64,000 nt of DNA from Escherichia coli. GTDB taxonomy: Bacteria; Pseudomonadota; Gammaproteobacteria; Enterobacterales; Enterobacteriaceae. The stretch lies in assembly GCF_003790525.1 (NCBI RefSeq), contig NZ_CP033635.1; one strand, given 5' to 3'. A program made the position numbers and the translations under genes. Each line of letters begins with the position of its first letter. The stretch's first letter is position 1. This document shows positions 5,285 to 6,670 of the stretch, piece after piece. The notes below the pieces were generated by a model. It was not told where the DNA came from. It worked only from the letters and a program-made list of their open reading frames with translations, and did no database searches.

Positions 5285-5752
5285 ATGATTAAACGCGTAT
5301 TGGTTGTTTCAATGGTAGGTCTGTCTCTTGTCGGTTGTGTTAATAACGACACCCTGTCAGGGGATGTTTATACCGCTTCTGAAGCGAAACAAGTACAGAA
5401 TGTCAGCTATGGCACCATCGTTAACGTACGTCCGGTACAGATTCAGGGCGGTGATGATTCCAACGTTATCGGCGCAATTGGCGGTGCTGTTCTTGGTGGT
5501 TTCCTGGGAAATACTGTTGGCGGCGGAACCGGGCGTTCTCTGGCTACTGCAGCAGGCGCTGTTGCAGGTGGCGTAGCCGGTCAGGGCGTACAGAGTGCAA
5601 TGAACAAAACGCAGGGTGTCGAGCTGGAAATTCGTAAAGACGATGGTAATACCATCATGGTGGTACAGAAACAAGGCAACACTCGTTTCTCTCCGGGCCA
5701 ACGTGTCGTACTGGCCAGCAATGGCAGTCAGGTGACCGTTTCCCCGCGCTAA
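5285..5752 (+). CDS. slyB: outer membrane lipoprotein SlyB
   Basis: 155 aa ORF with lipoprotein signal (LVGC) and glycine-zipper-rich body; recognised as SlyB. Confidence 0.93.
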   Translation: MIKRVLVVSMVGLSLVGCVNNDTLSGDVYTASEAKQVQNVSYGTIVNVRPVQIQGGDDSNVIGAIGGAVLGGFLGNTVGGGTGRSLATAAGAVAGGVAGQGVQSAMNKTQGVELEIRKDDGNTIMVVQKQGNTRFSPGQRVVLASNGSQVTVSPR

Positions 5753-5760
5753 ATAAGTTT

Positions 5761-5788
5761 GCGTGTGGTCAGGTTACTGACCACACGC
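5761..5788. terminator. bidirectional hairpin between convergent slyB and slyA
   Basis: perfect 12-bp stem gcgtgtggtcag / ctgaccacacgc with 4-nt loop, 9 nt after slyB stop and 11 nt before slyA stop. Confidence 0.65.
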
Positions 5789-5798
5789 CCCCTTCATT

Positions 5799-6233
5799 TC
5801 ACCCTTTGGCCTGTAACTCAATGATATTATGCTCAAGTTTTGCGATGAGCTTAATCAGTTGTTCCAGTTCCTCTGCGGAGATGCCATGTAAAATTTCCGC
5901 GCGGGTTTTGTTAATAACAGCTTCCATTTCGCTGATCAGTGGCTCTGCCTTTTCCGTCAGTTTAATACGTTTAGCCCGACGATCGCTGGCACAAGTTTGA
6001 CGCGAAATTAACCCTTTTTCTTCCAGTTGGTCCAGAGTACGGACCAGTGATGGCTGCTCGATGCCAATCGCTTTTGCCAGTTGAATTTGCGACTGGTCTG
6101 GAGGTAACTGATGGATATTGTGTAACGTAACCCAATGGGTTTGTGTTAACTCCAGCGGTTTCAGGCGATGGTCTATCAGAGCACGCCATATGCGCACCAA
6201 CCGTGCCAGATCAGAACCTAGTGGCGATTCCAA
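5799..6233 (-). CDS. slyA: MarR-family transcriptional regulator SlyA
   Basis: ORF 5799..6239 (146 aa from ATG); the 144-aa form I recall for K-12 SlyA ([12 protein letters not shown]...) would start at in-frame TTG 6233. Confidence 0.88.
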
Positions 6234-6249
6234 TTTCATCTCCTTATAA

Positions 6250-6261
6250 TTAGCTTGCTAA
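6250..6261. promoter_or_regulatory. SlyA-type palindrome TTAGCTTGCTAA just upstream of slyA
   Basis: 12-bp near-palindrome resembling the SlyA consensus TTAGCAAGCTAA, 11 bp upstream of the slyA ORF in the slyA/ydhI divergent region. Confidence 0.5.
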
Positions 6262-6433
6262 GATATTATGCGGCTTTTAGAATAGTGTGCAGCAATTGTA
6301 TTGCTAAAACAAATGTATTGCTGCATTTGGTTACCGTCAGACATATTTTTCAGAAATTGCGCGTAAATTTTTCGCACTTAAAGAATATTTATTAATCTAA
6401 CGCAATATATTCGGTCGTAAAGGAATCTACTTT

Positions 6434-6670
6434 GTGAAGTTTATGCTCAATGCAACAGGATTGCCCTTACAAGATCTGGTGTTCGGTGCGTCCGTCTACT
6501 TTCCTCCGTTTTTCAAAGCCTTCGCGTTTGGATTCGTCATCTGGCTTGTCGTACACCGCCTGCTTCGTGGCTGGATCTACGCTGGTGACATCTGGCATCC
6601 CTTGTTAATGGATTTATCGCTGTTTGCGATTTGCGTTTGCCTTGCCCTGGCAATACTGATTGCGTGGTAA
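6434..6670 (+). CDS. ydhI: small inner-membrane protein (DUF1656), partner of YdhJK
   Basis: 78 aa ORF from GTG 6434 ([25 protein letters not shown]...), two hydrophobic segments; recognised as YdhI. Confidence 0.85.

Follow-up and report, generated by a model that had tools for sequence, protein, structure and literature searches.

Described relatives and identity of the locus

The closest described system to the locus analysed here is slyA of E. coli K-12 (b1642, UniProt P0A8W2), a 144-aa product initiated at UUG, which has the same 60-nt start context and the same ydhI-slyA-slyB synteny and from which our locus shows no relevant difference. The UUG start of slyA is already known, having been described for Salmonella in 1999, shown by E. 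coli genetics in 2011 and brought to the peptide level in 2026. Kawakami et al. (1999) report that slyA of Salmonella is initiated at a TTG codon, and Bar-Oz et al. (2024), citing that work, point out that an AUG lies just past the Shine-Dalgarno (SD) sequence and that Salmonella initiates at the UUG two codons further downstream, which is conserved. In E. coli, replacement of the slyA UUG by AUG was found to raise SlyA more than 5-fold (McVicker et al. 2011), a statement that Curtis et al. (2017) repeat. Poor initiation at UUG restricts SlyA and through it fimB and type 1 fimbriation, and is as such a documented regulatory feature.

The slyA gene of Salmonella enterica (structures 3Q5F, 3QPT and 3DEU) shares with our locus the triplets ATG AAA TTG GAA TCG CCA, the SD and the palindrome upstream of it (loci L089 and L117), while its SlyA differs in the C-terminal part and its upstream promoter region differs as well; in 3Q5F, the residue at the position homologous to the TTG is Met. 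Yersinia rovA (4AIH, protein MESTLG...) likewise starts from TTG, with the SD 5-6 nt upstream of this homologous codon (L005, L014, L071 and L072). Unlike E. coli slyA, it carries no upstream ATG and therefore has no start ambiguity; the preceding triplets are GGG CAA, the first G of which extends the SD to AAGGAGG. Finally, kvrA of Klebsiella pneumoniae, a slyA orthologue, has a translation-initiation region almost identical to that of E. coli slyA, and Bar-Oz et al. (2024) raised for it the same question of AUG versus UUG, noting that the AUG stands just downstream of the SD and not at the classical distance. The annotated kvrA start is the AUG and those authors leave the real start undecided, whereas in E. 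coli and Salmonella the matter has been settled experimentally.

By "the window" we mean the whole stretch of E. coli DNA that was analysed, 64,000 nt long. Its region 5700..6450 (751 bp) is 100% identical to the corresponding region of E. coli strain 2016C-3878 and 99.3% identical, over the same 751 bp, to that of the K-12-lineage strain MC1061. Of 5426 complete E. coli genomes, 5423 carried the slyA region and 3 lacked it; the 751 bp were at least 99% identical in 5419 of the 5423 E. coli records, and the 65 nt around the slyA start were identical in 5351 of the 5423 genomes. One of the 5427 matching places in the complete assemblies was on a plasmid record, and in NZ_CP034966.1 the region was split into two places.

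The coding sequence, in RefSeq coordinates, is as follows:

5799..6233, minus strand: slyA coding sequence, 144 aa plus stop, MarR-family regulator SlyA.

The encoded protein matched the solved structures 3Q5F and 3QPT of Salmonella SlyA (E = 3.4e-80 for 3Q5F) as well as the Yersinia RovA structure 4AIH (E = 2.3e-65). RefSeq features at the identical region give the order ydhK-ydhJ-ydhI / slyA / slyB / anmK, with which the open reading frames of the window concur. The gene is thus found with ydhIJK divergent and slyB convergent, one of the features by which membership of the SlyA/RovA lineage was judged. The window gene is E. coli slyA, a member of the SlyA/RovA lineage of MarR-family regulators.

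The two in-frame codons and the N-terminal peptide

Translation of E. coli slyA almost certainly begins with the UUG at 6233..6231 and yields a protein of 144 aa, MESPLG.... A published peptide demonstrates that this UUG is used; the codon limits SlyA output, as the UUG-to-AUG mutant demonstrates; it is preceded by an SD at 6 nt; and its position has evolved as that of a start codon. The first-pass annotation had given SlyA as beginning MESPLG, corresponding to the TTG at 6233..6231, and RefSeq, the literature, N-terminal proteomics and cross-species comparison all agree with it. The features on which the choice of start depends are these:

6231..6233, minus strand: TTG (UUG), the functional slyA initiation codon by RefSeq start, N-terminal peptide, homologues and SD spacing.
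6237..6239, minus strand: in-frame ATG, not the (main) start, which opens the longest open reading frame with a 0-nt SD spacer.
6240..6246, minus strand: Shine-Dalgarno sequence TAAGGAG, the best anti-SD duplex in the region.

The minus strand reads TTAGCAAGCTAA TTATAAGGAG ATG AAA TTG GAA TCG CCA, with ATG at 6239..6237, AAA at 6236..6234, TTG at 6233..6231 and GAA at 6230..6228, exactly the triplets and coordinates (6239..6228) that the first-pass annotation had given. The longest open reading frame, 5799..6239 on the minus strand, opens at the ATG and encodes 146 aa (MKLESPLG...). The frame is stopped 9 codons upstream of the TTG by an in-frame TAG (6260..6258) that falls within the palindrome, and therefore the ATG and the TTG are the only two candidate starts of slyA. 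Given that 3 of the 64 triplets are start-capable, about one gene in 3 would be estimated to have an upstream in-frame start within 8 open codons; the ATG-before-TTG pattern is real, yet no more than chance would give.

In E. coli initiation, SD spacers of about 5-9 nt are functional and those near zero are not. The AAGGAG at 6245..6240 leaves a 0-nt spacer to the ATG and one of 6 nt to the TTG, placing the TTG within the functional range. With a 9-nt anti-SD, the duplex of UAAGGAG has a predicted energy of -9.3 kcal/mol; with the 13-nt 3' end of 16S rRNA, pairing extends to UAAGGAG.A.UGA at -11.4 kcal/mol, and the U and G of the ATG at 6239..6237 fall within the predicted extended SD:anti-SD helix. 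A duplex scan of the region returned no second SD-like duplex upstream of the ATG, and the only SD is the one that abuts it; the two codons do not each have a ribosome-binding geometry of their own.

On these grounds, the 30S subunit would bind the strong SD UAAGGAG at 6246..6240, and its P site would then be placed about 5-7 nt downstream, at the UUG. The AUG at 6239..6237, touching the SD and lying partly within the SD:anti-SD helix, would for steric and pairing reasons be unable to occupy the P site of an SD-anchored ribosome, and the triplets ATG AAA would act as ribosome-binding-site spacer rather than as codons. The weak UUG keeps SlyA low, which is a known feature of slyA regulation.

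Direct evidence comes from TRAINSPOTTER (Van Damme 2026, PMC13245402), a deformylation-assisted N-terminomics method that was built to resolve closely spaced start codons. In row 352 of its Table S1, slyA (b1642) of E. coli K-12 is listed as a dbTIS with TTG at NC_000913:1720822-1720824, and the N-terminal peptide consists of residues 1-11 of the 144-aa SlyA with Met at the TTG position (PMC13245402). The Nt-free SILAC H/L ratio of this peptide is 12.6, indicating a nascent, originally formylated N-terminus, and the same row records that Ribo-RET, INRI-seq and REPARATION back the TTG start (PMC13245402). The 60-nt context printed in the row is identical to the window. Initiation is the sole possible origin of a Met at the TTG-encoded position. 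The N-terminal proteomics or ribosome profiling that the first-pass annotation had proposed as a check had in fact been published, with a TTG-initiated peptide and the support of Ribo-RET and INRI-seq as outcome. The ambiguity that it had presented as open was already settled by that peptide; the slyA start is a settled annotation detail, with little weight beyond correct annotation.

It could be argued that the ATG at 6239..6237 is the sole or main start, SlyA being a 146-aa protein MKLESPLG... in which the TTG encodes an internal Leu. In fact, the ATG is the first start codon of the longest open reading frame, and an AUG; 146 contigs carry the 146-aa form, among them those of CFT073, UTI89, 536 and APEC O1 as annotated in GenBank; and the crystal construct 3DEU has Leu where 3Q5F has Met, and was therefore cloned from the ATG. 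Yet the nascent peptide has Met at the TTG position, by which this reading is refuted in practice, the ATG follows the SD with a 0-nt spacer, and conversion of the UUG to AUG raises SlyA as stated above. We consider it vanishingly improbable.

A second possibility is dual initiation, in which the UUG is the main start and a small share of ribosomes uses the AUG, producing in Enterobacteriaceae a low-abundance MKL proteoform, perhaps in a condition-dependent manner. AUG is intrinsically the stronger start codon, closely spaced alternative starts are frequent in E. coli (118 aTISs, with 68 genes having multiple N-terminal proteoforms), and Ribo-RET cannot separate starts that are 6 nt apart (PMC13245402). 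Table S1 is sorted by locus tag with alternative-start rows adjoining their gene, and in the part of the table covered, which includes slyA, the gene has a single row, that of the TTG. An MKLESPLG... N-terminus, which the first-pass annotation had named as the observation that would speak against the TTG, was looked for and has no row among the Table S1 rows listed, which reflect one growth condition; peptides for both N-termini of slyA are likewise not found together among those rows. In the TRAINSPOTTER workflow trypsin cuts only after Arg, and the MKL form would yield an ordinary 13-mer (PMC13245402); a slyA uTIS row is nonetheless lacking among the rows listed although such a 13-mer is a normal Arg-C-type peptide. 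Dual initiation, which we regard as very unlikely, is also disfavoured by the 0-nt spacer and by an AUG partly buried in the SD helix.

The annotation of the gene is divided along the same line. RefSeq/PGAP places the slyA coding sequence at 1718..2152 of L001, equivalent to 6233..5799 of the window, with the TTG start and 144 aa, and the 144-aa form is carried by at least 1000 contigs. A RefSeq non-redundant record from Citrobacter portucalensis, WP_352487886.1, begins MKLESPLG and has 146 aa, so slyA start calling is not uniform even within RefSeq. There is a lesson here for gene callers and for cloning: the longest-ORF rule leads to the 146-aa protein, which is still present in some GenBank records, at least one RefSeq record and one construct used for crystallisation.

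The 3' end of the gene has its own peculiarities, beginning with one further feature:

5761..5788, minus strand: terminator-like hairpin whose 12-bp stem contains 8 G-C pairs and precedes a T-rich tail.

The hairpin sits between the stop codons of the convergent slyA and slyB and looks like a shared or bidirectional terminator. SlyA entries of 154 aa were inspected as possible cases of starts further upstream and were rejected as such, being products of stop-codon loss with a C-terminal extension. In these E. coli entries (P0012 and P0014), mutation has turned the TGA stop into a Cys or Leu codon, which adds ...NEGGVWSVT, a read-through into the terminator hairpin region.

The start position across Enterobacterales

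A degenerate DNA pattern for the 11 N-terminal residues of SlyA detected 120 loci in species-representative Enterobacterales genomes, and 114 of these could be put in register, forming the species-level homologue set. At the position of the E. coli TTG, 85 homologues have TTG, 24 have ATG (Pantoea, Pectobacterium, Dickeya, Brenneria and Lonsdalea) and 5 have GTG (Serratia and Proteus), so that a start-capable codon stands there in 114 of 114. CTN or TTA was found at this position in none of the 114, while the true Leu codons 5, 9, 12 and 19 of the same homologues each use 5-6 synonymous codons. The position varies, that is, among start-capable triplets only and admits no synonymous sense codons; an internal Leu, as the 146-aa reading would have it, is contradicted by a TTG that never drifts to other Leu codons.

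The codon at -2, where E. coli has its ATG, is ATG in 50 of the 114 homologues and one of 15 other triplets in the remaining 64, and an in-frame stop occupies codon -1 or -2 in 12 of the 114. In 11 of these (Rahnella, Xenorhabdus, Proteus, one Serratia and others) the stop is a TAA at codon -1, and in Erwinia piriflorinigrans it is a TGA at codon -2. Both the absence of the ATG from the 64 homologues and the stops speak against an ATG start. In 55 of the 114, the start-position codon is the sole in-frame start after the upstream stop. The two extra residues of an MKL form are moreover absent in Yersinia, Serratia, Photorhabdus, Proteus and others, which leaves them no conserved function and counts against dual initiation as well.

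GGAG and the start codon are 6 nt apart in 84 homologues, 5 nt apart in 24 and 7 nt apart in 4, whereas the remaining 2 have only an AGGA core; the spacing is thus 5-7 nt in 112 of the 114. A G as the first base of codon -2 extends the SD to AAGGAGG in Yersinia, Photorhabdus, Rahnella, Serratia and Proteus. Most Pantoea have GGAGATGAAATGGAT, which keeps the SD-adjacent ATG, although in a frame different from that of the real ATG start. In the Pantoea loci (L016, L026, L056, L063, L067 and others), GGAGATGAAATGGAT is one base shorter than the E. coli GGAGATGAAATTGGAA, and it is by this difference that the start becomes ATG and the SD-adjacent ATG falls out of frame. The ATG being out of frame, 'GATGAAA' is therefore conserved as spacer sequence and not as codons. 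In Pectobacterium, Dickeya and Brenneria, GAG GTG ATG is found in place of the Pantoea arrangement.

The cross-species table predicts a UUG start for Klebsiella kvrA too.

The triplets ATG AAA TTG are invariant in all 50 Enterobacteriaceae and Erwiniaceae species that have the ATG, which can be read in favour of dual initiation. As a coding signal this invariance was considered and rejected, the flanking palindrome, the SD and the synonymous sites of codons 2-4 being equally invariant. Perhaps the SD-abutting AUG of Enterobacteriaceae has been selected as a functional element and is no neutral spacer, acting either as a decoy or tuner of the weak UUG or as a conditional second start giving rare MKL-SlyA. 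We give this idea a slim chance, which it retains because ATG AAA is invariant in the 50 species having ATG and the N-terminomics represents one growth condition.

The conservation around the start extends beyond these triplets. Of 47 species with ATG AAA TTG, 33 share an identical 46-nt block, which in the window stands at 6221..6266 (minus strand), AATAACTTAGCAAGCTAATTATAAGGAGATGAAATTGGAATCGCCA. It begins 5 nt upstream of the palindrome and runs through codon 4, taking in the synonymous sites of codons 2-4, and synonymous variation in the ATG AAA TTG species begins only at codon 5. Going by this degree of conservation, the block is under more constraint than operator and SD alone would explain, and the constraint may come from the translation-initiation region or from an RNA-level interaction. 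In Enterobacter sp. Ag1 (L012), Enterobacter sp. Cy-643 (L108) and Cedecea davisae (L122), a tandem duplication of two codons, TCGCCA TCGCCA, is seen just after the start, and the protein begins M-E-S-P-S-P-L-G with ATG AAA TTG intact.

Operator sites, leader and autoregulation

Two sites upstream of slyA resemble the operator of its own product:

6250..6261, minus strand: palindrome TTAGCAAGCTAA, a SlyA consensus operator that matches the Stapleton consensus exactly.
6389..6400, minus strand: second SlyA-like site, TTAGATTAATAA, lying between ydhI and slyA.

The gene thus carries an operator in its own upstream region, with TTAGCAAGCTAA at 6261..6250. Table 3 of Curtis et al. (2017) places the palindrome "22 bp upstream of slyA", counted from site centre to start codon. 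The centre of the palindrome at 6255.5 is 22.5 from 6233, and the published distance fits the TTG start only. For the second site the same table gives 161 bp upstream of slyA (Curtis et al. 2017), and the distance from its centre, 6394.5 - 6233 = 161.5, again fits the TTG.

With respect to the ATG, the palindrome had been described in the first-pass annotation as lying 11 bp upstream, which is right by one way of counting: 10 bases (6249..6240) lie between the two, and the last base of the palindrome is 11 positions from the A. It had been added that the choice of start affects the geometry of the leader and of autoregulation. This holds for the nominal length of the 5' UTR, which changes by 6 nt, but not for the operator, whose place relative to the promoter and the transcript start is unchanged; SlyA autoregulation is transcriptional, so the operator stands at the same position relative to the promoter whichever codon is used. 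Autoregulation of slyA is reportedly negative in Salmonella. For E. coli, Corbett (2007) reports it as positive.

A scan of 5700..6460 for the sigma-70 consensus called no promoter on the slyA strand. A -10-like hexamer, CATAAT, is present at 6265..6270 of the window (minus strand), 3 nt upstream of the SlyA palindrome, and was left uncalled by the promoter scan because it has no good -35. Its counterpart in most other Enterobacteriaceae is TATAAT. A transcript from CATAAT would begin inside the operator, with a predicted leader of only about 25 nt.
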